64,000 bases of DNA, taken from the sequence record ON212266.1. One strand, given 5' to 3'. The notes beneath the pieces were generated by a model that saw nothing but the letters and a program-made list of their open reading frames with translations, was not told where the DNA came from and made no database searches. The DNA comes from Enterobacter phage fGh-Ecl02. The position numbers and the translations under genes are program-made. Numbering within the stretch: the first letter of the stretch is position 1; each line of letters opens with the position of its first letter. Shown one piece after another: positions 4,700 through 17,811 of this stretch.

Positions 4700-5689
4700 A
4701 TGTCTAATATCACTATCGTTTCCGACCAGTACGCATGGGAAAACAAGTACCGCCCTGACAACCTGGACGAGATTATCATCCCTCAAGACGTCCGCGCTAA
4801 AATCCATGGCTACATCACCAGCGGCAACGGCAACATCCCGTCTATGCTGTTCTACTCCCCTCAGCCTGGTACTGGCAAGACTACCTCCGCCCTGGCCGTG
4901 TGTAATGAAATCGGTTGTAAGCAACCACTGATGATCAACGCATCCCTGGACAACAGCATCGACGTTATCCGTGACCGCGTGATTCAGTATTCTACTGGTG
5001 TGAGCGTATTCGGCGGCCGCAAAGTTGTTATCCTTGACGAAGTAGAACGTCTGTCTATGGCGGCACAGGAGTCGCTGAAGGGTATTGTGGAGAAGGTCTC
5101 CAAGAACTGTTCATTCATCCTGACCACCAACGCCAAGCAACGTGTGAACGAACCTCTGCGCTCTCGTTGCCGTGAAATCGACTTTATCTGGAATGAGACC
5201 GAGGCTGATGAGGTAAAACTTCAGTTCATGCGCCGCTGTGCTGAAATCCTTCGCTGCGAAGGTGTTGAGTATGACCCTCCTGTGTTGGCTGCTATTGTCA
5301 AGCGCCATTTCCCCGATAACCGCCGCATCATGGGTGTTCTACAGGATAACGTCACCACTTACGGCAAGATCGACGAACGTGCACTGGCTGTGTTAAAATC
5401 GGCCGATATGGGCATGTTGGTGAATATGTTGAAGGATAATGACTGGGCTGGGATGAAGCAGTGGGTGACCGACAACCAGAACTATATCACTGAAGACTTC
5501 TATTCCCGCTTCTTCCAGTTCTGTGTACCACAGGATAAAGAGAAGCAAATGTTGGTTCAGAATGAGTCTATCCCTGATCTGGTATGCGTATGTGGTCAGT
5601 CTCAGATTGAACACCGTCAAGTCGGCGATGTCTGGCTGCATGCTGTGTTTTTCCTGACCAATGTCATGCTCAACATCAAGTGGAAGTGA
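4700..5689 (+). CDS. 44: clamp loader large subunit (gp44, AAA+)
   Basis: Start moved to Met20 of the track ORF (GAGG SD). ENKYRPDNLDEIIIPQD...YSPQPGTGKTTSA Walker A matches T4 gp44 (EQKYRP...HSPSPGTGKTT). Confidence 0.85.
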   Translation: MSNITIVSDQYAWENKYRPDNLDEIIIPQDVRAKIHGYITSGNGNIPSMLFYSPQPGTGKTTSALAVCNEIGCKQPLMINASLDNSIDVIRDRVIQYSTGVSVFGGRKVVILDEVERLSMAAQESLKGIVEKVSKNCSFILTTNAKQRVNEPLRSRCREIDFIWNETEADEVKLQFMRRCAEILRCEGVEYDPPVLAAIVKRHFPDNRRIMGVLQDNVTTYGKIDERALAVLKSADMGMLVNMLKDNDWAGMKQWVTDNQNYITEDFYSRFFQFCVPQDKEKQMLVQNESIPDLVCVCGQSQIEHRQVGDVWLHAVFFLTNVMLNIKWK

Positions 5690-6145: not shown

Positions 6146-6610
6146 ATGGCGCGTAATACGCTAGACATATTGAATATTTCAGCAGTCAACGATGAGGCCA
6201 GCATCGTTGACTGTATGGTTGAAGTTCAATTGAACCAAGATCGGCCAGGTATATTCCTGGGGATCAAGGAAACACTGAGTCGAATTGGGGTAAACACGCG
6301 CCAAGAGCCGAATACTCTGTATCAGACTTGCCATATTCTTCATAAGTGTGGCAAGTATTATATCGTCCACTTTAAGCATCTATTTATGCTGGACGGGCAT
6401 TACAACGGATTTAACCGCGAAGATGTCCTGAGGATGAACCGAATCATCAAGCTGCTGGAGCAGTGGAACATGGTGAAGGTCATTCATCCTGAGCAGGTCA
6501 CCGAAGCCGCCGATATGTCTCGCATTAAAGTGGTTAAACACGATCAGGTTCCTGAATGGAAGCTGGTTCCAAAATACATCATCCGGCCTACGAAGGCAAA
6601 AAGCGAATAA
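6146..6610 (+). CDS. regA: RegA translational repressor
   Basis: YQTCHILHKCGKYYIVHFKHLFMLDG and C-terminal EWKLVPKYIIRP closely match T4 RegA (YQSCHILQKKGLYYIVHFKEM...EWKLVPKYTI). Confidence 0.85.
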   Translation: MARNTLDILNISAVNDEASIVDCMVEVQLNQDRPGIFLGIKETLSRIGVNTRQEPNTLYQTCHILHKCGKYYIVHFKHLFMLDGHYNGFNREDVLRMNRIIKLLEQWNMVKVIHPEQVTEAADMSRIKVVKHDQVPEWKLVPKYIIRPTKAKSE

Positions 6611-6626
6611 CTGGAGTCGCTAAATC

Positions 6627-7499
6627 ATGACAACTACATTTTCTAAGAACGTGAATCTGAATCTGGCTTTCGGTAATGCAAAGGGCGACGTCACATCGCC
6701 CGACTTTGGCAAGATCCGCAATCAGGCGAAACTGGTGCTGGAAGAAACCCGTGAACTGCTGGAAGCGGCGTATTTCGACCACGAGGTGAAAATTGAGTTC
6801 ACTGCATCTCCGCGAGTCCTGAAAGAACCCGTTGTTGTCGACATCAAAGACATTATGCGCCAGATCATGGATGCCCAGGGTGACATCACAACAGTCAACG
6901 ACGGCGTGGCTCATATTGCTGGTTTCGACGGTGACGAATGCCTACAGCGCGTGTATGCCTCTAACATGAGCAAGTTCATTCGTAATGAAGGTGAAGTTGT
7001 GCCTGCACTGGATTACTACTACAACAAAGGCTTCCCACGCGAAAGTCTACGCATCGAAGGGGAATTCCCTCAGGCGTGCATCAAAGTGGTAGACACCATC
7101 ACCGTCGACGGCAAAGAATACCCGGCTGGCAAGTTCCTGAAGAACATGGCAACCTTCAAAGAGCCTGACTTCTCTGATATGTTGACCGCCGAGCCTAAGC
7201 GCCAGATCACCGAAATCATTCTGACAGGTACGGCTACCCCAGGTCGACTCGGATGCAACGAACATGCTGGTGTTGCCTACGCGCCGTTCGATTTTATTGA
7301 CGAGATCGTGGGATACACCAAGATGGGCTTCCAGGCGTTCTCTGGCGAAACAGTCGAGAGCTACATTCCTGTGTTTGTTTTCAATGAAGATAACTTTCCA
7401 ACTCTACCGTTGATCTGGGGTGAATGGAAAGCCAACGTCCGTATCTATGTGGCCAGCCCAGTGCAATCATCTATAACCCAACTGACCCGTATCGATTAA
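6627..7499 (+). CDS. hypothetical protein (possible MazG/HisE-like all-alpha NTP-pyrophosphatase N-terminal region)
   Basis: 290 aa, GGAG SD. N-terminal helical region with a KLVLEETRELLEAA...D...E pattern, assignment weak. Confidence 0.45.
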   Translation: MTTTFSKNVNLNLAFGNAKGDVTSPDFGKIRNQAKLVLEETRELLEAAYFDHEVKIEFTASPRVLKEPVVVDIKDIMRQIMDAQGDITTVNDGVAHIAGFDGDECLQRVYASNMSKFIRNEGEVVPALDYYYNKGFPRESLRIEGEFPQACIKVVDTITVDGKEYPAGKFLKNMATFKEPDFSDMLTAEPKRQITEIILTGTATPGRLGCNEHAGVAYAPFDFIDEIVGYTKMGFQAFSGETVESYIPVFVFNEDNFPTLPLIWGEWKANVRIYVASPVQSSITQLTRID

Positions 7500-7523
7500 G
7501 ATATACGGTTATTCACTAAACAA

Positions 7524-7550
7524 CAGAGGCTATAATGGCCTCTGTTTTCG
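7524..7550 (+). terminator. intrinsic terminator cagaggc-TATAATG-gcctctg + TTTTCG
   Basis: 7-bp GC stem + T-run. Confidence 0.7.
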
Positions 7551-7567
7551 TATTCTAAGAGGATACC

Positions 7568-8791
7568 ATGAAAGATAAACCATATGACATCCCATATTGC
7601 GGTGTCCGTGAAACCAAAATCAAATCAGCCCATCCTATGTTAAGTTCATTCCACCGCCAGCTGGCATATGAATGGATGAGGGATCGTTATGCGATACATG
7701 TCAAGAAGGACGTGCAATGTCTTCCAGCGCCATGGACGGATAATCCGGTATTACGCCAAGTCAAGTTTTGTAACGTGCGGAGAGAGCACGATAGACAGTC
7801 TCGAAATTTGATCAATAATATCATCCTCAATCAGGATCTCACGCTATCTGACAAAATGTTCAACTGTGTATTGTTCCGCATGTACAACATGTGGGAACCT
7901 ATACAGGCTTTGGGTGGTCCATGGACGATCGAAGAATTCGGAAACATAAATCTTGAATGGTGTCGAAATGTTCTTCAGGAATTCGAATCTAAAGGTGGCA
8001 AAGTTTTCACCAATGCGTTTAATACAGGCGGTCTGAAACAATGCCTGGCTTTCCCCGAACTAGTTGTCAACCACAAGGAGCAGTGCTTCGGTGGGATGAT
8101 GGTGAATCTGATCTGTAAAGACGGTTCAACCCAGAACATGGATTACAAGAAAGCCAAGGCCATCGCTGAAGCAGAGCCGGACTTCTACACCATCGAAGGT
8201 TGGGAACCGTACATGCCAATGCGTGTCATCCGCTCCCTGAAGGCATTCGTCAACAAACACCCTCATTACTTTGATCGCCTCAGGGAATTTAGCCGTCCCG
8301 ACTCTGTTTACCAGGCGATGTATGACGACATTGAGGGGCTTGGACCATTCTTGGCATACCAGATTTGGGTTGATTTTACGTACATCGATGAATATCCATT
8401 CAGTGAAAACCACTTCACTATCGCTGGTCCCGGTTGCCGTGCTGGTATCGATCTGTTATTTTTGGACAAGGACGGCATGACGCATGAAGAATGCATATTC
8501 TGGGTTCGTGATCATCAAGATCAATTGTTCGCTCAGTATGGGTATAAACGTAATGAATTTTGGTCGGCAGAAGAACCGGAAGATCGTTGCATGAATGTTA
8601 TGCAGCTGGAGAACATGTTCTGTGAACTTCAGAAATATACCCGCTGCGTTGAGGCGGTGATGCGCGGGGAGAAACCTCGAGGAAAGGTGGGGTATGACGG
8701 GAATGGCAGTGCGTATAAGCAACGTTGTGATGAAGTCGTGCTCAAACGTGGTTCCGTCAATTTGCTGGACCGTTTGAAGAAACCTGAATAA
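7568..8791 (+). CDS. hypothetical protein (407 aa; candidate DNA base-modification enzyme)
   Basis: AGAGGA SD, preceded by a terminator. No confident motif. Sits where T4 has gene 43. Confidence 0.5.
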   Translation: MKDKPYDIPYCGVRETKIKSAHPMLSSFHRQLAYEWMRDRYAIHVKKDVQCLPAPWTDNPVLRQVKFCNVRREHDRQSRNLINNIILNQDLTLSDKMFNCVLFRMYNMWEPIQALGGPWTIEEFGNINLEWCRNVLQEFESKGGKVFTNAFNTGGLKQCLAFPELVVNHKEQCFGGMMVNLICKDGSTQNMDYKKAKAIAEAEPDFYTIEGWEPYMPMRVIRSLKAFVNKHPHYFDRLREFSRPDSVYQAMYDDIEGLGPFLAYQIWVDFTYIDEYPFSENHFTIAGPGCRAGIDLLFLDKDGMTHEECIFWVRDHQDQLFAQYGYKRNEFWSAEEPEDRCMNVMQLENMFCELQKYTRCVEAVMRGEKPRGKVGYDGNGSAYKQRCDEVVLKRGSVNLLDRLKKPE

Positions 8792-8905
8792 AGATTCCCT
8801 TTACTTCGTTCTTCAATAACTCAATCCAGCGTATATTAACCTCACTTAAACGAAGCGCCCTGACAAACGGGGCGCACATTTGAACTGAAACAGGAAGACT
8901 ACATC

Positions 8906-10924
8906 ATGTCAGAATTTAAGCCCTTCGCAGTAGCTGTCAACAATAACGTGCTGGCCATGTCAGCAACTGGTCTGTTCATGACCAACATCGATAAAGATGC
9001 TCTGTGGGATCTGTATCTGTCTTCTTTCCCTGCTGGCACTAACCCGCTTTATCGTGAGCGTACCGAGCACGACTGTACCTGCTGTAAACAATTCATCCGT
9101 AATATCGGCGGTGTGGTCACCATCGACTCCGACCTGAACGTGATCTCTATCTGGGATAACATTCAGCTGGGTAACGAATACGACGTTGTCGCTTCGGCGC
9201 TGTCAGCGTATGTTAAGCAGCACGCAATCGTCGACGTGTACTTCAACGACACCAAGAAAGTTGGTGTTGAGTCGAATCACGAAATGAAAGACGGTATTGT
9301 CCGCACCTACAACCACTTCCACACCGACCTGCTGGGCAGCTATGTTCTGCGGGCAGATACCATCGCTTCTAAGAAGGGTGAAATCCGCCAGGCGATTGAA
9401 GTGTTTGAGCGCGGCCTGCGTGAACTGTCTCTGGAATCGGCTGAAATCGTTCTTGAATTGATTGACCAGAATTCTCTGTATCGCGGTGAAGAGCACAAAG
9501 CGGCAGTGCAGGCGTTCGTGGTGAACAAGACCCTGTACGAACAAACTGCAGAAGAGAAACGCGCTCTGTGGGCTTGGCGCACTGGCTACCGTGCAAACGG
9601 TCATACCCCTCACGGCATTCGTAATACCGTGATTGGCTCTCTGCTGGTAGACCTCAATGAAGGTCGTGATCTGGAAACCGCCGTGAAGTCCTTTGAAGCC
9701 AAAGTCGCTCCGACGAACTACAAGCGCCCAACCGCGCTGGTCACGAAGTCCATGATTGAAAACGCGCAGAAAGAAGTCGAAGCGCTGGGTCTGACCGATT
9801 CACTGGGTCGCCGTTATGCCGTGTATGACGATCTGACCATCAACAACGTTCTGTTCGCCGATCTGGCAGTTCAGAAGAAGATGGACCCGTTTGCTCAGCT
9901 GGCGTCTGAAGTGAAGACTCCGACCAAGTCCCTGGACAAGGTTGAAGAGATCACGATCGACGACTTCCTGACCAACGTGTTGCCAAAGGCGCATTCCCTG
10001 GAAGTACTGGTCGAAAACTCTCACATTGGCAACCTGATGTCCCTGATCGCTCCGGCTACCGCAGGCGCTCCTAACCTGTTCAAGTGGAACAACGGCTTCA
10101 GCTGGTCGTACAATGGCGAAGTGGCCGACTCCATCAAAGAGCGCGTGAAGACCGCAGGCGGTAATGTCGACAGTTTCCTCCGTGTGTCACTGGCTTGGCA
10201 TAACAACGACGACCTGGATCTGAGCATGAACGATCCTCTTCACAACCACGTATATTTTCGCAACCGTCGTTCGTCAACTGGCGCAACTCTGGACATCGAT
10301 ATGAACGGTATGGATGGGATTGATCCAAACCGCCGTCCGGTGGAGAACATCTTCTTCAGCGATGAACGCAAGCTGCGTGACGGGAATTATGAGTTCTATG
10401 TCACCAACTTCAACAAGCGTGAAACCTGTGACGTTGGTTTCGAAATCGAAGTTGAATACAAAGGCCAGACTAAGCGCTTCTCACACCCTGGCCTGGGTAA
10501 CAAAGATCGCACGTTGGCTGTTGTGGTTCAGGTTCGCGCTGGTCAGGTGGTCAACATCAGTTCTACCCTGAAAGACGACGCTCGCTCTCAGGAAATCTGG
10601 GGCATCAAGACCTCCGTCTTCCAGAAGGTACAGCTGGTTCTGAACTCACCAAACCATTGGGACGGCGAGCAGACTGGCAACAAGCACGTGTTCTTCATCC
10701 TGGAAGGTTGCGCCAACCCTGTCGGCACCCGTGGTTTCTATAACGAATATCTGAAGCCGGAACTTGATAAACACCGCAAGGTTTTTGAAATGTTAGGTGG
10801 TAAGATTAAAGTACAGCCAAGCACTGAGCAGCTGTCCGGTCTGGGCTTCTCTACCACCCAACGCAACCACGTGTTCGTGAAGGTGAGCGGCTCTTTCAAC
10901 CGCACTGTGAAAGTTGTGTTCTAA
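8906..10924 (+). CDS. hypothetical large protein (672 aa) with N-terminal HDCTCC cysteine cluster
   Basis: AGGAAG SD. No P-loop and no polymerase or ligase motifs found. Confidence 0.5.
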   Translation: MSEFKPFAVAVNNNVLAMSATGLFMTNIDKDALWDLYLSSFPAGTNPLYRERTEHDCTCCKQFIRNIGGVVTIDSDLNVISIWDNIQLGNEYDVVASALSAYVKQHAIVDVYFNDTKKVGVESNHEMKDGIVRTYNHFHTDLLGSYVLRADTIASKKGEIRQAIEVFERGLRELSLESAEIVLELIDQNSLYRGEEHKAAVQAFVVNKTLYEQTAEEKRALWAWRTGYRANGHTPHGIRNTVIGSLLVDLNEGRDLETAVKSFEAKVAPTNYKRPTALVTKSMIENAQKEVEALGLTDSLGRRYAVYDDLTINNVLFADLAVQKKMDPFAQLASEVKTPTKSLDKVEEITIDDFLTNVLPKAHSLEVLVENSHIGNLMSLIAPATAGAPNLFKWNNGFSWSYNGEVADSIKERVKTAGGNVDSFLRVSLAWHNNDDLDLSMNDPLHNHVYFRNRRSSTGATLDIDMNGMDGIDPNRRPVENIFFSDERKLRDGNYEFYVTNFNKRETCDVGFEIEVEYKGQTKRFSHPGLGNKDRTLAVVVQVRAGQVVNISSTLKDDARSQEIWGIKTSVFQKVQLVLNSPNHWDGEQTGNKHVFFILEGCANPVGTRGFYNEYLKPELDKHRKVFEMLGGKIKVQPSTEQLSGLGFSTTQRNHVFVKVSGSFNRTVKVVF

Positions 10925-11362: not shown

Positions 11363-11390
11363 AACCCCGCCATGTGCGGGGTTTCTTTTG
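11363..11390 (+). terminator. intrinsic terminator
   Basis: aaccccgc-catgt-gcggggtt + tcttttg. Confidence 0.75.
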
Positions 11391-11400
11391 GACAAAGAAT

Positions 11401-11811
11401 ATGAAACCTGTTATATGTGATTACTGTGGCCTCCCAGCCGAATTCGTCGGTGGTGATGTTCTCTACCCTCATCGCCCTGACCTCCGCAATCTGAAGTTCT
11501 GGGTGTGCACTCCATGTGATGCCCGTGTCGGTTGCCATGCCCATGGCGACGGCAGACAACCTTTGGGAAGGATGGCGAATGCCGCTCTCCGTGCTGCTAA
11601 GCAGGAAGCCCATAGATCGTTTGACCCATTGTGGAAAAGCGGAGAGAGGAGCAGGAGCGACGCTTACAGTTGGCTGGCGCATAAGCTGGGGATAAAGAAG
11701 CGTGAGTGTCATATTGGCTTGTTCGATATCGACATGTGCCGTAAAGTAGTTGTTGTCTGTCAACAATACGAGGTACATATCAATGTCAAAGGAAATACAA
11801 GAAGCGTTTGA
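11401..11811 (+). CDS. zinc-finger (CxxC...CxxC) domain protein
   Basis: Start at Met10 of the track ORF. CDYCG...CTPCDARVGCH cysteine pattern. Confidence 0.45.
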   Translation: MKPVICDYCGLPAEFVGGDVLYPHRPDLRNLKFWVCTPCDARVGCHAHGDGRQPLGRMANAALRAAKQEAHRSFDPLWKSGERSRSDAYSWLAHKLGIKKRECHIGLFDIDMCRKVVVVCQQYEVHINVKGNTRSV

Positions 11812-12088
11812 GAATCTAACTCAGGCGCTCACCAACTGCAACCGTCTCAACTATTGCAACGACCCATTGCAAAAGCTGAAGTCCCTGGTAGAATCAGAAC
11901 TGGCTAAACTGGCCGAATACAACGCCATCCAAGAAGACGTGGTGTTCATGTCGGACACGGTCGTAGACACCCTTCCGCGCGAAGTGTACAATGTATTGGG
12001 TCGCATCGCAAAGGTGGGTTTCCGTGAACCACAAGACGCCAAACCCACCCCCGAAATTCTTACATCCATCGTTGACTCGTTTAAGTGA
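11783..12088 (+). CDS. hypothetical protein
   Basis: 101 aa (MSKEIQ...), overlaps the end of the upstream gene. Confidence 0.4.
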   Translation: MSKEIQEAFENLTQALTNCNRLNYCNDPLQKLKSLVESELAKLAEYNAIQEDVVFMSDTVVDTLPREVYNVLGRIAKVGFREPQDAKPTPEILTSIVDSFK

Positions 12089-12095
12089 GACCACC

Positions 12096-12329
12096 ATGTC
12101 TAAAGAGATTATTTTTACCGGGGCGGCGCTTGACACCATGTATGCCCTGTACAATCGTGGTCCACTGAGCATTGGCGATATCCCGTCTAAGTCAGGTCTG
12201 GACTTCCTGTTGCGACATAAGCTGGTTGTGGCTGTGGTAGTCAGGGGTGAAACGCAATACGCCGGGTCGATGGCCATGGCTTCCCACTACAAACGTCAGA
12301 CATGGAAGGGCGCTTCCTCCAAATCCTGA
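12096..12329 (+). CDS. hypothetical protein
   Basis: 77 aa (MSKEIIF...), internal Met of the track ORF just after the upstream stop. Confidence 0.35.
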   Translation: MSKEIIFTGAALDTMYALYNRGPLSIGDIPSKSGLDFLLRHKLVVAVVVRGETQYAGSMAMASHYKRQTWKGASSKS

Positions 12330-12397
12330 GTTTGTCAAAACCTTTTCAATATCAATAACGTCCAGCGTAAATGCTGGGCGTTTCAATTAGCAGTACA

Positions 12398-12406
12398 TGG
12401 TATAAT
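12398..12406 (+). promoter_or_regulatory. extended -10 promoter TGgTATAAT
   Basis: TGnTATAAT 29 nt before the ATG at 12435. Confidence 0.45.
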
Positions 12407-12434
12407 GGGACTGCTGACGAATACGAGGTGTATC

Positions 12435-12797
12435 ATGTCTGTGAAGATGAAAGGTGCTGAGTTCAAAACCTATTATCACGATGACCAATATTGGGTACAA
12501 GACGCCTGGCACGAAGATCACGTCATCAAAGTGAATGGCGAATATGTCGAAGATGTAATCGACGATGAGATCCCTAACGATGCTGATGTCGTGATCGAGT
12601 CTGGAGTTGTCTATATTCCGTCTCAAACTGATAGCGGTCGTGTTGAAAAGGAAGTGTCGCTTGTTACTCACTTCAAGAACTGGCGCAAGCAGAACAAATT
12701 CTCCTTCATCGTCGTGACGGTGGAGAAGGACAAGGTCGCCGATGTTCGCCAAGCCCTGCGGTCGATCCCTGGCGTTACTGAAGTCAAGGGCGGCTGA
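12435..12797 (+). CDS. hypothetical protein
   Basis: 120 aa downstream of an extended -10 promoter TGgTATAAT, with GAGG SD. Confidence 0.5.
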   Translation: MSVKMKGAEFKTYYHDDQYWVQDAWHEDHVIKVNGEYVEDVIDDEIPNDADVVIESGVVYIPSQTDSGRVEKEVSLVTHFKNWRKQNKFSFIVVTVEKDKVADVRQALRSIPGVTEVKGG

Positions 12798-12798
12798 T

Positions 12799-12969
12799 AT
12801 GGCCAAACCATTTGAACGTGTGGGCGTCGACAACCTCGACCGCCGCTTTAGCCCATCGGAAACGCTGATGAGTCAGATTGAACTCAATCGCGACTTCCTT
12901 GAATATATGCTGGTCAAGCCGGAAGGTGAGGCCGAAGACAACCCTGAAGAAGGCAATAACGATGATTGA
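12799..12969 (+). CDS. hypothetical small acidic protein
   Basis: 56 aa, overlaps the vWA gene start by 8 nt. Confidence 0.3.
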   Translation: MAKPFERVGVDNLDRRFSPSETLMSQIELNRDFLEYMLVKPEGEAEDNPEEGNNDD

Positions 12970-15163
12970 ATCATTAGAATTTAAGAATGCGGTTGCGACT
13001 GCTGCCCCGTCCAACCATGTAATCGTTGTAGACATTTCCGGCTCGATGTACCGTGCGCTCCCTGAAGTCCGTAAGCACCTGAAGGAGAACCTGCCTTCCT
13101 TGGTGAAGCCAGAAGACACTGTGAGTGTTCTATACTTCTCATCCAAAGGCGACTTTGGCACTGTGTTCGCTGGCCGTCAGATCAATGCAGCATCCGACCT
13201 GAGCGAAATCAACAATCTAATTGACCGCTTCCTGAAACCGTCTGGTTGCACTGGCTTTGTTGAGCCGTTGAAACTGGCGATGGACACTGCTCGTGGCCTG
13301 AAGAAGCCTGGCTATGTCAACAACCTGGCGTTCATGACTGACGGGTATGACAACTGCTGGCGTACCAACGAAATTCTACTGGTTGCTGAGACCCTGCCAT
13401 TTGCTTTCGATAACATTACATTTATCGAATACGGCTGGCACTGTAACCGTGAACTGCTGGCGCAGATGGCCGAACACTCTGGTGCTACTCACGTGTTTGC
13501 CGAAGGTCAGACCGAATACCAGACCGAACTGGAAAACGTGCTGAAGTCATCAGTACCGAAGGTGGTTGTTGATGTGCCTCTGCTATACACCCACGCTATC
13601 TATGTTGAAAACGGCGTAGCAACTGTGCTGGCGGTACAGCCGGATGAAGACCATCCTATCGGCCACGTGAGCATCCCTGAGAGCGTCACCAAGCTGTGGG
13701 TTGTAAACCCTAACATGATCGACCAGATGGATAGCCTGACGGAAATCCAGGCGGCATACGTGCTGGCGTTCTACGGTGTACACACTATGGACGCAGATCT
13801 GGTTTGGGCTGCGCTGAAGAAGACTGGCGACGTTCGCTTCATCAAACAGTACAGCAACTGCTTCACCAAGCAGGACTACTCCAACATCAAGAACGATCTG
13901 GTACAGGCGATTGTTGACGACCAGCTGCGTGGTGTTGACGGTATTGACTATGACCTGGTTCCGGCCGAAGACGCGACCACCGTCGTTGATGTGCTGACGT
14001 ACCTGGCTGAAGCTGGTGTGCCTGTTGCTACCAAGCATCCGATGTTCTCCTATAAGAGTATCGGGCGCGGTACTGTGCAGAAAACCGACGACACCGAAGA
14101 CAAGCTGGCAGAACAGATCGCGAATGCTCAGTCCAAAGAAGAGCGTAAAGCCCTGGCTCTCAAGCTGGCAGAACACGAAGAGTGGAACCCGACGTTCGAA
14201 CCTACCAACGACCTGGGTGTTGTGCCAATCAGCGATTTGGTCTATAACTCCGAGCGCCCGAACATCAGTGTGCGCACTATTCAGCATGGTACTGTGACTG
14301 TCCCTGAGTTCGCACAGAAGAAGTTTGGTCTGCCTGAAGAACTGGATACTTTCCAGTGGCGCAACTACACCATCGTCAAAGACGGTATCATTAACGTGAA
14401 GACTCTGCCGTTCAAGGCTGATATCGAAGTTGTACAGAAGCTGATCGAAATGGGTGTCCACGTGTTTGGTGGTCCGGAAGTGTTTGTCCTGAACCTGGAA
14501 AGCGTACCGCTGGTCAACCGCGCCATGGTCAAGAACATCAGTGCTGCTCAGTTCTTTGCGGATAATGTCCGTCTGGAAGCCCTGAAAGGCAAGCAGAAGG
14601 TGCTGAAGTTCTATCGAGACGCCCTGGTTGGTAAGGGTAACGCCAAAGGCCTGGCAGTACAGTACGGCGCTGAGGCGGCCGAGTTCCTGTCCTCCTACGG
14701 CATCCGCGATTACGGCTTCTCACCGAAGACTGAGACCAAAGAGTCTACCGACTTCTACATGAGCCGTGAGCTGAACGTTAAGATTGCCGGGGCGTCTTCC
14801 CTACCGAGCATCGCGACAGTACAGAAGAAGATTGCTGAGAACAAGAAACTCAATGCGGGTGACTTGTTCATCGCCAATGCGCTGAAGGAGTACGATGCAT
14901 TCGTGAAGTCTCCTATGATCACTGCCGTGCCTGAAGCCTTACAGAAACAGCTGATCGAAAACTGGATCGACGCTGCTGCCAAGGCGGCCATCACCGAAGT
15001 CCGTGCCCTGAACAAGACACTGTCTAAAGTGGTGTATGGTATCGTTGCTGGCCACGGCTGGTTCACCGACCTCGACCTGGAAGAGTCCACCATGGAAGTT
15101 GAAGTGGATGGCGTGAAGTACAAGGTCACTGCCGAACTGACAGAGAAAGAAATCAAAATCTAA
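12962..15163 (+). CDS. von Willebrand factor A (vWA) domain protein with N-terminal MIDAS motif, 733 aa
   Basis: VIVVDISGSM (DxSxS MIDAS) at residues ~25-35 followed by a typical vWA beta-alpha pattern (SVLYFSS...TGFVEPL). The long C-terminal region is unassigned. Confidence 0.7.
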   Translation: MIESLEFKNAVATAAPSNHVIVVDISGSMYRALPEVRKHLKENLPSLVKPEDTVSVLYFSSKGDFGTVFAGRQINAASDLSEINNLIDRFLKPSGCTGFVEPLKLAMDTARGLKKPGYVNNLAFMTDGYDNCWRTNEILLVAETLPFAFDNITFIEYGWHCNRELLAQMAEHSGATHVFAEGQTEYQTELENVLKSSVPKVVVDVPLLYTHAIYVENGVATVLAVQPDEDHPIGHVSIPESVTKLWVVNPNMIDQMDSLTEIQAAYVLAFYGVHTMDADLVWAALKKTGDVRFIKQYSNCFTKQDYSNIKNDLVQAIVDDQLRGVDGIDYDLVPAEDATTVVDVLTYLAEAGVPVATKHPMFSYKSIGRGTVQKTDDTEDKLAEQIANAQSKEERKALALKLAEHEEWNPTFEPTNDLGVVPISDLVYNSERPNISVRTIQHGTVTVPEFAQKKFGLPEELDTFQWRNYTIVKDGIINVKTLPFKADIEVVQKLIEMGVHVFGGPEVFVLNLESVPLVNRAMVKNISAAQFFADNVRLEALKGKQKVLKFYRDALVGKGNAKGLAVQYGAEAAEFLSSYGIRDYGFSPKTETKESTDFYMSRELNVKIAGASSLPSIATVQKKIAENKKLNAGDLFIANALKEYDAFVKSPMITAVPEALQKQLIENWIDAAAKAAITEVRALNKTLSKVVYGIVAGHGWFTDLDLEESTMEVEVDGVKYKVTAELTEKEIKI

Positions 15164-15168
15164 TCCAA

Positions 15169-15194
15169 CGGGCGGGGCAACCCGCCTTTCTTTG
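15169..15194 (+). terminator. intrinsic terminator after the vWA gene
   Basis: ggcggg-gcaa-cccgcc + tttcttt. Confidence 0.65.
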
Positions 15195-15205
15195 GGAGAA
15201 GTAGC

Positions 15206-15529
15206 ATGAGCAGTAAACCAACATATGTTGAAGTCATGCGTCATCTGGCTCAGTACGCCACTGACAATCTGAATATGGATCTGTGGCGTGACGATGACAA
15301 GCGCAAATTGCTGGACGACGTGGCATCTCAGAACGAGGACGCCCTGGACAAGCTGGCTGGCCTCCGTACCAAGAAAGACCTCGGTGGTGACGAACTGGAT
15401 GCCATCGAAATCGTAATGGAACTAGAAGAAGAGTTTCAGGTCGAAATCGACGACGGGTGGCTAGGTAGTAAAGGCGATGACCCGACCATGGGTGAACTCG
15501 CTGAACTCGTGGTTGCCCTGCGCAAATAA
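15206..15529 (+). CDS. acyl carrier protein-like protein lacking the phosphopantetheine-acceptor serine (Ser->Glu)
   Basis: DLGGDELDAIEIVMELEEEFQVEI versus E. coli ACP [24 protein letters not shown]. The DSL serine is replaced by E. GGGAG SD. Terminators on both sides. Confidence 0.6.
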   Translation: MSSKPTYVEVMRHLAQYATDNLNMDLWRDDDKRKLLDDVASQNEDALDKLAGLRTKKDLGGDELDAIEIVMELEEEFQVEIDDGWLGSKGDDPTMGELAELVVALRK

Positions 15530-15533
15530 CAGA

Positions 15534-15565
15534 AGTCCCCAACAAACGTTGGGGATTTTTACTTT
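15534..15565 (+). terminator. intrinsic terminator after the ACP-like gene
   Basis: tccccaac-aaac-gttgggga + ttttt. Confidence 0.75.
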
Positions 15566-15572
15566 TAGGGGG

Positions 15573-15601
15573 TTTACTTCCTCTAAGGAATGTCCTATTA
15601 T
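15573..15601 (+). promoter_or_regulatory. T4-type early (sigma70-like) promoter gTTTACT-N17-TATTAT
   Basis: Exact 17-nt spacing, one of five copies of the same architecture. Confidence 0.55.
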
Positions 15602-15951: not shown

Positions 15952-16458
15952 ATGACCGATCAACAAATTCAAGATTTATTTTACCTCGTCCATGATAAGT
16001 CCCACATCATGCGCCCCGGTACTGTTTCCCCTGCCGTCCGTGATCTGGTGCAAGAATTGCGCGAACCGCAGACGACCACACTTTATCGCGGGCTGCCTAA
16101 AGAGGACGTTGCGCGTTTAGAGATGATGTTTGAACGAGGCGACATGTTCCAGACATGGGATTCTTGTCTTAGCTTCAGTGAACTGAAGCATGTGGCCAAA
16201 AAATTTTCTAAATCGTACGGGACCAAAGCTGTTGCCCGCATTTGTTACAAACATCGAATCGGACTCCCGGAAGGGCTTAACGTCTATGGTTCTCTAGAAA
16301 AATTTGTGAACAAAGGCGATGAATCAGAAATGGATATGCTGGACTTGGCGTCCATGGAGAAAGAATGGATATTCTGCCAGCCTCGCGTCATACCAGTTTC
16401 AAGAAAAATGGCAACAGACGGGACGATGGTTTTTACCGTATCACTTGTTACCCTATAA
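15952..16458 (+). CDS. hypothetical protein
   Basis: 169 aa, Met8 of the track ORF, start motif GGAACTATACCATG after hairpin repeat copy A. Confidence 0.5.
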   Translation: MTDQQIQDLFYLVHDKSHIMRPGTVSPAVRDLVQELREPQTTTLYRGLPKEDVARLEMMFERGDMFQTWDSCLSFSELKHVAKKFSKSYGTKAVARICYKHRIGLPEGLNVYGSLEKFVNKGDESEMDMLDLASMEKEWIFCQPRVIPVSRKMATDGTMVFTVSLVTL

Positions 16459-17361: not shown

Positions 17362-17811
17362 ATGTTCCTTACATCTTTTATTGACTGGTTGAACATCATT
17401 AACGGCCTGAGGATTCCTGTTGGGAACCTCGGGCTTTCTCGTTCTTCTATGCCGCAAATCGATGCCGACAAACAAGAAGATTTTCACAAATATCTTGAAG
17501 ACAACGGCGTGTCCATAGATGCTGTGCAAGTGCCCATCAAAATGCTTCGTCTTACCCAGAACGAAATCAATAAAATGAAGGTCTGGAAGATTATGAAGCA
17601 GATCAGAAATAAGAAACCTATGGGTCGAGTTTGGGTGTCTTCTGACAATTACGTTGTTGACGGTTCTCACCGATTTGTCGCTGCGTTGAACATGGACGGC
17701 AAACAGCGCATGAAGGTCTACAAAGTTGATTTGCCAGCGATGGAATTTGTTAAACTCGCTAAACAGTTTCAGGGTGTGCGATACAGAACGGTCAGCGATA
17801 CCCGTTTCTGA
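17362..17811 (+). CDS. ParB/sulfiredoxin-like nuclease domain protein
   Basis: VVDGSHRFVAAL matches the ParB-N DGxHR motif. Confidence 0.45.
   Translation: MFLTSFIDWLNIINGLRIPVGNLGLSRSSMPQIDADKQEDFHKYLEDNGVSIDAVQVPIKMLRLTQNEINKMKVWKIMKQIRNKKPMGRVWVSSDNYVVDGSHRFVAALNMDGKQRMKVYKVDLPAMEFVKLAKQFQGVRYRTVSDTRF

Follow-up and report, generated by a model that had tools for sequence, protein, structure and literature searches.

The gene at positions 15206 to 15529 of the DNA analysed here (64,000 nt of Enterobacter phage fGh-Ecl02, record ON212266.1, hereafter the window) encodes a 107-aa acyl carrier protein (ACP)-like protein that is a non-acylatable paralogue of bacterial AcpP. The serine that carries 4'-phosphopantetheine in AcpP is replaced by a carboxylate residue throughout the relatives examined, while the acidic surface around it is kept. 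Since a protein without this serine cannot shuttle acyl groups, the ACP-like protein most likely acts by binding other proteins. Over 2 kb, the region shares 97.5% identity with Escherichia phage AV101, and it shares 93% with Shigella phage MK-13 (Ackermannviridae, Aglimvirinae, Agtrevirus), which assigns the gene to a virulent myovirus of enterobacteria of approximately 155 kb.

The ACP-like core and its modification site

The following features were assigned to the gene.

15194–15199, plus strand: Shine-Dalgarno sequence GGGAGA, 6 nt 5' of the ATG, read from the sequence
15206–15529, plus strand: coding sequence (ATG to TAA) of the 107-aa ACP-like protein
15206–15274, plus strand: family-specific N-terminal extension (residues 1-23, predicted helix 7-21) with no AcpP counterpart, from the gap in the AcpP alignment, the invariant residues and AlphaFold2 (AF2)
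15374–15454, plus strand: residues 57-83, comprising the end of loop I, helix II and the start of loop II, the sole segment with clear AcpP identity (63%), from BLASTP, NCBIfam and the family invariants
15392–15394, plus strand: codon GAA for Glu63, the residue aligned with Ser36, which bears the phosphopantetheine in AcpP, from alignments to the B. subtilis and E. coli ACPs
15458–15496, plus strand: motif W-x-G-x3-DDPT-x-GE (residues 85-97) in place of the AcpP helix-III region, from the family invariants

The core DLGGDELDAIEIVMELEEEFQVEI is identical to E. coli AcpP at 16 of 24 positions (67%), in agreement with the match of about 70% to the ACP helix-II region reported in the earlier note on this DNA. 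BLASTP against E. coli AcpP aligned residues 57-83 with 17/27 identities (63%, E 5e-9). The Pfam PP-binding model PF00550 was matched with 26.0 bits, above its gathering cutoff of 20.8 (E 1.1e-5), and a phmmer search of the PDB matched approximately 100 ACP chains (best E 5.5e-6), placing Glu63 opposite the Ser of the D-S-L motif. Residues 1-107 matched positions 1-108 of the 108-position profile of PHROG 4154, 'acyl carrier protein', at E 2.4e-57, and PHROG 5934 was also matched (8.4e-10). A family profile search retrieved 796 proteins at E<=1e-3, and among the best 150 of these 796 the matches from outside the family were mostly Ser-bearing ACP-like sequences. As judged from these comparisons, the similarity of the protein to ACPs is well above chance. 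The NCBIfam AcpP equivalog cutoffs (models TIGR00517 and PRK00982) were not reached, the best score being 34.6 versus 70.45 bits and covering residues 54-83 only. The resemblance to AcpP is confined to about 30 residues, divergence having affected the N-terminal extension, helix I and the helix-III region.

An AF2 model based on a 30-sequence family alignment was all-helical (mean pLDDT 74), with helices at residues 7-21, 30-41, 44-51, 65-77, 83-88 and 95-105. The protein is thus predicted to adopt a compact four-helix ACP bundle and not another fold.

Conversion of the GAA codon for Glu63 into any Ser codon takes at least 2 nucleotide changes. In approximately 70 relatives checked, down to about 30% identity, the site was always Glu or Asp and never Ser. 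Forty family clusters (55-97% identity) drawn from a collection of 5.8 billion proteins carried Glu in 38 cases and Asp in 2. Eight more divergent relatives, seven of them full-length (P0042-P0047, P0049) and one aligned over its C-terminal two-thirds (P0062), came from a profile search run exhaustively over 1.84 billion representatives, and in all of these most divergent sequences the site was again Glu or Asp. A scan of IMG/VR, which returned Ackermannviridae-sized contigs only and so did not widen the family, yielded 17 genomes with GGDELD in 11 and GGDDLD in 6, the latter being the Vi01-type 103-aa form. The deepest branches found, in Erwinia phage Bue1 and Serratia phage 3M, read MDELD and FDELD, with Glu at the site. 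The von Willebrand factor A (vWA) proteins encoded in the neighbourhood of these two genes, described below, are just 50-56% identical to that of the window.

A sequencing error or recent mutation at this codon was rejected, because it is at least two changes away from Ser and because the whole lineage has settled on Glu or Asp. The family alignment contains no column with an invariant or 90%-conserved Ser, and Ser2, Ser3, Ser41 and Ser88 were dismissed as alternative attachment sites since all four are variable. Phosphopantetheinyl transferases (PPTases) require the DSL serine. The ACP-like protein cannot, then, be phosphopantetheinylated or carry fatty acids. This bears out the earlier note, which had recognized a Glu in place of the invariant Ser and had called the protein non-acylatable; the retained Ser that it had considered for homologues in related phages was seen in none of the relatives examined. 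The exclusive occurrence of Glu and Asp points to selection for a carboxylate and not to simple decay of the site, and it fits the idea, put forward in the same note, that the residue is phosphomimetic.

Phage ACPs of another type have kept the serine. The ACPs of the Pseudomonas jumbo phage HRDY3 (PHROG 5934 type) are likewise small ACP-fold proteins with an AcpP-like helix II, but they retain GGDSLD or HMDSLD and are presumably loadable, whereas the Ackermannviridae family (PHROG 4154) lacks the Ser throughout the relatives examined. The existence of Ser-bearing ACPs in other phages implies that the loss is lineage-specific and selectively maintained. Neither the N-terminal signature nor the DDPT motif is present in the homologues of Bue1 and 3M, whose C-terminal half is more AcpP-like. 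As these homologues nevertheless carry Glu at the site, the change from Ser to Glu appears to be older than the other features of the family.

These data bear on the possibility that the protein is a genuine carrier, loaded by a different chemistry or at another residue. Many records label it 'acyl carrier protein' and the Pfam PP-binding threshold is passed. However, conservation of Ser is lacking at every position, the DSL serine needed by PPTases is gone and the AcpP equivalog models are not satisfied. Moreover, no PPTase, ketosynthase, acyl-ACP synthetase or acyltransferase is annotated within the 26 kb around the MK-13 orthologue, and no Pfam or PHROG match indicating an association with PPTase, FAS, PKS or NRPS functions was found among the neighbours in the window. 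We therefore regard a carrier function as extremely improbable.

The segment around the substituted site is rigidly kept. Residues 57-83 retain equivalents of AcpP D35, L37, D38, E41, M44, E47, E49, I54 and D56. Across the family, R54, K56, L59, G60, G61, D62, L64, D65, I67, E68, E74, E76 and D83 are invariant in the end of loop I and helix II; the helix-II invariants correspond to AcpP D35, L37, D38, V40, E41, E47, E49 and D56, and M71, the equivalent of AcpP M44, is at least 90% conserved. In ACP-enzyme complexes these helix-II residues dock AcpP on basic patches of its clients. The AcpP docking surface is retained in the phage family, with D62, D65, E68, E74 and D83 being invariant. Retention of the acidic helix II of AcpP, as read from the single sequence in the earlier note, hence extends to the equivalents of D35, D38, E41, E47 and D56 in the whole family.

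Two further conserved elements are specific to the family. The N-terminal extension contains the invariant residues Y7, V10, L14, A18, N21 and L22, and the W-x-G-x3-DDPT-x-GE motif is defined by W85, G87, D91, D92, P93, T94, G96 and E97, with T94 aligned to the helix-IV N-cap Thr of AcpP. Residues 24-46, by comparison, are highly variable and occur in discrete types. Within the same contigs, identity to the window amounts to 34-49% for the ACP-like protein versus 71-74% for the vWA protein and 76-85% for the product of a 149-aa gene. Compared to MK-13, the ACP-like protein is 80% identical, most of its neighbours 92-99%. The sequence comparisons thus depict a small, fast-evolving protein that combines one rigidly preserved AcpP-like surface with surfaces peculiar to its family.

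The protein is very acidic, with a pI of 4.26, 27 Asp and Glu versus 13 Lys and Arg residues and a net charge of about -14. Together with its fast evolution and the presence of an Alt/Mod-like ADP-ribosyltransferase gene in the same region, this could suggest an acidic DNA mimic or anti-restriction decoy comparable to Ocr or ArdA, for which the ACP fold would be a mere charge scaffold. We consider this very unlikely. E. coli AcpP is itself equally acidic (pI 4.05), the predicted fold is a compact four-helix ACP bundle and not an elongated charge array, and selection acts on a single helix and a single residue and not on overall charge. For the ACP-like protein PADLOC yielded a single negligible match (PDC-M32A, E 0.023, 11.6 bits); the vWA protein had no match. 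A search of the anti-defence literature found nothing.

Transcription unit and the vWA/MIDAS neighbour

In the annotated relative MK-13, the surroundings of the gene consist mostly of replication and nucleotide-metabolism genes, including those for a clamp loader, regA, MazG, a helicase and a late sigma factor. The immediate neighbourhood in the window comprises the following features.

12799–12969, plus strand: 56-aa open reading frame, first of a tightly packed string of genes, its stop overlapping the vWA start (ATGATTGA), from the sequence
12962–15163, plus strand: upstream gene for a 733-aa protein that begins with a vWA domain and has an intact metal ion-dependent adhesion site (MIDAS; D25-x-S27-x-S29, T98, D128), PHROG 2426, candidate partner of the ACP-like protein
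15170–15187, plus strand: GC-rich hairpin followed by TTTCTTT, between the vWA stop and the ACP-like start, from a scan
15536–15562, plus strand: terminator-like hairpin TCCCCAAC-AAAC-GTTGGGGA (15536-15555) followed by TTTTTAC, the putative end of the vWA/ACP-like transcript, from a scan and RNAfold (-18.5 kcal/mol)
15573–15601, plus strand: sigma-70-like promoter (TTTACT, 17 nt, TATTAT) for the downstream genes, the putative start of the next unit, from a scan

The 42-nt spacer between the end of the vWA gene (15163) and the start of the ACP-like gene (15206) contains the upstream hairpin and the Shine-Dalgarno sequence. Between this hairpin and the ATG there are 18 nt, holding just the Shine-Dalgarno sequence. 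As this leaves no room for a promoter, the ACP-like gene must share the vWA transcript. The 56-aa open reading frame, 96% identical to MK-13 gp150, is probably translationally coupled to the vWA gene via the ATGATTGA overlap. The ACP-like gene is the last gene of a transcript that runs from the 56-aa frame through the vWA gene. No T4-type late promoter TATAAATA was found near the ACP-like gene. The terminator-like hairpin downstream was detected in most relatives examined, and in distant relatives the GGTTTACTTC box is again found 3' of the terminator. GC-rich hairpins thus flank the gene, in keeping with the terminator-flanked unit of the earlier note, but an autonomous transcription unit of its own was rejected, since neither a promoter-like site nor the space for one exists between the upstream hairpin and the ATG.

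In distant relatives a hairpin occupies the same place between the two genes with different stem sequences and predicted energies of -14 to -19 kcal/mol. That the hairpin is kept despite different stems suggests a conserved attenuator or RNA-stability element, and the upstream hairpin is likely a partial terminator or an element of the latter kind. A read-through fusion of the vWA and ACP-like proteins was also considered, as the two genes lie in the same frame in the window with 14 sense codons between them. It was ruled out by gaps of 40, 41, 43, 44 or 52 nt in relatives, which are often not multiples of three.

Close spacing of the two genes is a regular property of the lineage. The gap measures 40-53 nt in Bue1 and in each of 26 examined loci of AG3/Vi01-type phages and related metagenomic contigs, and in the five divergent contigs that were read (P0042, P0043, P0046, P0049, P0062) the ACP-like gene invariably lies directly 3' of the vWA gene. 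The ACP-like open reading frame of Bue1 is missing from the gene list of the Bue1 record. In Serratia phage 3M, three genes separate the vWA and ACP-like genes. The MIDAS residues D25, S27, S29, T98 and D128 are conserved in 27 diverse vWA homologues, and an AF2 model of the vWA protein reached a pLDDT of 86.

This arrangement raises the possibility that the ACP-like protein is a dedicated partner of the vWA protein, be it a subunit, a regulator or a plug, with the Glu or Asp at the N-terminus of helix II completing the metal coordination of the MIDAS. Ligand carboxylates coordinate the MIDAS metal in integrin I-domains and in CbbO-type vWA adaptors. Since the ligand of a MIDAS has to be Glu or Asp, such a role would account for the tolerance of these two residues, and of no other, at the site. 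The known integrin I-domain/ligand Glu and CbbO-Rubisco pairs resemble the putative phage pair in combining a complete-MIDAS vWA protein with an exposed invariant Glu or Asp. They differ from it in that the phage vWA family mostly lacks an ACP-like partner. Tight linkage without promoter room in the 26 loci and Bue1, the maintenance of an intergenic hairpin with changing stems and the conservation of the MIDAS across the vWA family all speak for such a partnership. One peptide each of the vWA and ACP-like orthologues was reported in the virion/lysate proteome of the Vi01-like phage Sajous1 (PMC10892097), also in favour of a partnership; the peptides show translation, not virion association.

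Several observations weaken this view. The vWA family is far wider than the ACP-like family. It comprises 503 phage records and is widespread in large myoviruses, with members in the Straboviridae phages RB43, Miro and Mm5, Pseudomonas phage pf16, Bacillus phage AR9 and Rhizobium phages, while the 276 phage records of the ACP-like family belong essentially to the Ackermannviridae. No ACP-like open reading frame was found within 4 kb of the vWA gene in RB43, Miro, Mm5, pf16, AR9 and one Rhizobium phage. Conversely, four Glu-type ACP-like proteins (P0053, P0055, P0057, P0291) with a canonical AcpP-like N-terminal half and a DDP(T) motif after helix II are encoded on phage-like contigs with ThyX, HNH and many small genes and no vWA gene, indicating that the Glu-type design works without the vWA protein. 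Furthermore, the pair is interrupted by three genes in 3M, the whole block is colinear in these phages so that adjacency may be inherited synteny, and divergence is far more rapid in the ACP-like than in the vWA protein. We consequently judge a dedicated MIDAS partnership to be unlikely. The idea of an obligate vWA/ACP-like two-gene module was likewise weakened by the vWA-only phages and by the Glu-type proteins found without vWA. Co-occurrence with the vWA protein is not obligate, and adjacency holds in the Ackermannviridae-like lineage with the exception of 3M. From these gene arrangements, the pairing is best described as a conserved operon in one lineage and not as an obligatory two-component module.

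Proposed mimicry of AcpP

The reading we favour is that the ACP-like protein is a mimic which occupies the ACP-binding site on a host protein, a narrower form of the decoy idea of the earlier note. We put this forward tentatively, as a serious possibility that falls somewhat short of an even chance. In its favour, the helix-II docking residues stay fixed although the protein as a whole changes faster than its neighbours. Both the identity of the partner as a host ACP client and an inhibitory effect are inferred. The protein would sit on the basic patch with which one or more such clients bind ACP, and there it would be a competitive or dead-end ligand beyond conversion by AcpS. The carboxylate of Glu or Asp would stand in for the phosphodiester of the 4'-phosphopantetheine attached to Ser36, and the N-terminal helix together with the W-x-G-x3-DDPT motif would supply target specificity. 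The mimic would be made from the same transcript as the vWA/MIDAS protein.

Some considerations argue against mimicry. The likeness to AcpP covers just about 30 residues, with all NCBIfam AcpP models below cutoff. The AcpP helix-III region, another contact to FAS enzymes, is replaced in the phage protein, and a partner within the phage is suggested by the conserved operon that the gene forms with that of a MIDAS-bearing vWA protein. Conservation of helix II could in part stem from constraints of the fold and from ancestry. AcpP makes up 0.25% of the soluble protein of E. coli (PMC3896788), and given this abundance a simple competitor would need very high expression or a much higher affinity. 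SpoT was reported not to bind apo-ACP, which implies that not every ACP client is a plausible target.

Alternatively, the protein may serve as a structural or adaptor subunit of another phage or host complex, in the manner of mitochondrial ACP-fold subunits that lack the Ser or act independently of acylation, without any mimicry or inhibition. A precedent is the mitochondrial ACP of Plasmodium falciparum, which lacks the phosphopantetheine-bearing serine and still binds Isd11-Nfs1 (PMC8547962). A dedicated partner is also suggested by the strong conservation of surfaces peculiar to the family, namely the N-terminal helix and the W85/DDPT region. On the other hand, the Pfam and PHROG scans of the neighbours were uninformative, revealing no LYR-motif protein or other candidate partner, and an adaptor role by itself leaves unexplained why the acidic AcpP docking residues are invariant amid drift. 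We consider an adaptor without mimicry decidedly unlikely.

In its fullest form, the mimicry reading describes a 'holo-mimic' of AcpP used by the Ackermannviridae and a few other phage lineages. In such a non-convertible protein, Glu or Asp would take the part of the phosphodiester. By blocking one particular ACP client of the host, such as PlsB, LpxA/D, MukB or the ISC machinery, the protein would redirect lipid, envelope or chromosome metabolism during infection. It might act alone or be delivered or regulated by the vWA/MIDAS protein. This extended version is speculative, and as a whole it is rather less than probable.

Relation to known ACPs and implications

Bacterial AcpP of type II FAS (PF00550, TIGR00517) differs from the phage protein in several respects. 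The latter has Glu or Asp instead of Ser36 and no phosphopantetheine, carries an N-terminal extension of 25-30 residues, has W-x-G-x3-DDPT in place of the helix-III region, remains below every NCBIfam AcpP cutoff and has no FAS, PKS or PPTase neighbours (26 kb in MK-13). Closer to the proposed function is E. coli apo-ACP, the unmodified form that docks on ACP clients and blocks them and which serves as the template for the decoy hypothesis. Apo-ACP inhibits PlsB and cell growth in E. coli (PMC3896788). It is, however, the host's own protein and is converted to holo-ACP by AcpS, whereas the phage protein can never be converted and bears a carboxylate at the site.

The mitochondrial ACP of Plasmodium and related ACP-like mitochondrial subunits share with the phage protein the retention of the ACP fold and the loss of the modification site. 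Their function is reduced to partner binding, which for the phage protein is the presumed mode of action. The Plasmodium protein reportedly has a hydrophobic Phe at the Ser site and not a carboxylate. The Ser-less mitochondrial ACPs are eukaryotic organellar proteins that bind LYR-motif proteins, but no LYR-type partner is evident among the phage neighbours. Ser-less ACP-fold binders in eukaryotic organelles and the toxicity of apo-ACP in E. coli are thus already known. In the open-access literature we found no paper on a phage ACP mimic or on the change from Ser to Glu or Asp in this family, in line with the statement of the earlier note that such mimics are not a described class. Searches for phage ACP mimics, Ser-less phage ACPs and Ackermannviridae transcriptomics returned just the annotation 'putative acyl carrier protein' and the one proteome peptide.

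Among bacterial and metagenomic proteins, too, ACP-like domains with Glu or Asp instead of Ser recur; the N-termini of several of these proteins resemble signal peptides or those of lipoproteins, and some of the proteins contain tandem domains. Their recurrence in unrelated ACP-like proteins suggests a general, little-noticed route from carrier to binder.

PHROG 4154 and many GenBank records list the family as 'acyl carrier protein' or 'auxiliary metabolic gene'. Because the Ser is absent and the AcpP equivalog thresholds are missed, the protein should not be filed as an acyl carrier protein. For approximately 270 phage records these labels are misleading and should be changed. If the protein is an AcpP mimic, these phages would attack the ACP hub that links fatty-acid, lipid A, lipoate/biotin, Fe-S and condensin functions, and the protein would represent a naturally optimised, non-convertible ligand for the ACP-binding site that may be of use as a probe or antibacterial lead. 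Should the 'holo-mimic' reading be true, the family would constitute a previously undescribed class of phage host-takeover protein.

Gene content upstream of the ACP-like gene

The vWA gene precedes the ACP-like gene in the same operon, and the space before this operon differs from that of close relatives.

Features of the upstream region
11374-11811: DUF3268 zinc-finger gene
12962-15163, + strand: gene of the vWA protein (733 aa, intact MIDAS motif)

Homologues of the vWA protein occur in about 500 phage records, among them Ackermannviridae, Straboviridae (RB43, Miro), Pseudomonas phage pf16, Bacillus phage AR9 and Rhizobium phages. For the 733-aa protein AF2 gives a confident model (pLDDT 86), and no PDB match was found to its C-terminal ~480 residues. 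Some records name the family 'tail protein' or 'minor tail protein'; its proteomic support consists of one peptide from the Vi01-like phage Sajous1 (PMC10892097), the sole proteomic record found.

Just upstream of the vWA operon, genes for a ribose-phosphate pyrophosphokinase and a nicotinamide phosphoribosyltransferase, a pair of the NAD-salvage type, are present in the close relatives MK-13 and AV101 and in the metagenomic contig L018. The regions compared were 11374-12800 of the window, 6476-10298 and 1-1152 of the related sequences L001 and L002, respectively, and 987-3502 of L018. Neither gene was found in the entire 64-kb window by tblastn with the MK-13 proteins as queries, and the equivalent space is occupied by the DUF3268 gene together with small ORFs.

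Variable segment and reading frame of the ACP-like gene

Features of the ACP-like gene and its homologue
15275-15343: hypervariable segment (ACP-like residues 24-46) between the N-terminal helix and helix I
~5314-5612 of MG973030.1 (Erwinia phage vB_EamM-Bue1), + strand: ACP-like ORF (MKRKDLIL...MDELD...)

The ACP-like protein is 80% identical to its MK-13 counterpart, most neighbours reaching 92-99%; its gene is among the most divergent of its block because of the hypervariable segment, for which phages that are otherwise close show a small number of discrete sequence types. In Bue1 the ACP-like ORF lies directly 3' of the vWA gene as well, and the gene list returned for the record omits it, showing a 440-nt 'gap' instead.

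In the window the vWA and ACP-like ORFs share a frame (15161-15208), with 14 sense codons following the TAA stop, so that readthrough of this stop would yield a fusion protein. As this frame relationship differs among relatives, the shared frame looks accidental.

Promoter element and downstream genes

Features 3' of the ACP-like gene
15571-15601: GGTTTACTTC box, followed ~17 nt on by TATTAT, immediately past the ACP-like terminator
15952-16458, + strand: Alt/Mod-like ADP-ribosyltransferase gene (168 aa, PHROG 832 match)
17362-17811, + strand: gene of a 149-aa protein

Box and TATTAT recur at equivalent positions in relatives (L001-L005, L018 and Bue1) despite strong divergence of the coding sequences; given this persistence, the element is probably a conserved promoter of early or middle genes. 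Variants with at most one mismatch number 8 in the window, compared to ~3 expected by chance.

The Alt/Mod-like gene lies two genes 3' of the ACP-like gene, where the next transcription unit begins. Its product matches the C-terminal part of PHROG 832, 'RNA polymerase ADP-ribosylase', and the orthologue in contig L003 matches Pfam Mod_ADP_RT. The 149-aa protein is strongly conserved (76-85% identity, distant contigs included); no Pfam match to it was found, and its VDGSHRF motif is reminiscent of ParB/sulfiredoxin-type domains.

Altered Ser sites in non-phage ACP-like domains

Glu or Asp also stands at the position of AcpP Ser36, with Gly, Pro, Thr, Trp or Phe as rare alternatives, in many non-phage ACP-like domains, from metagenomes and Streptomyces bacillaris (P0056, P0074, P0076, P0077, P0089, P0097, P0102, P0115, P0122, P0147, P0162, P0180, P0366 and P0369 of the profile search). 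Several of these proteins begin with a signal-peptide- or lipobox-like segment or contain ACP-like repeats in tandem. They may constitute a class of non-carrier ACP-fold proteins that are exported and have gone unrecognised.
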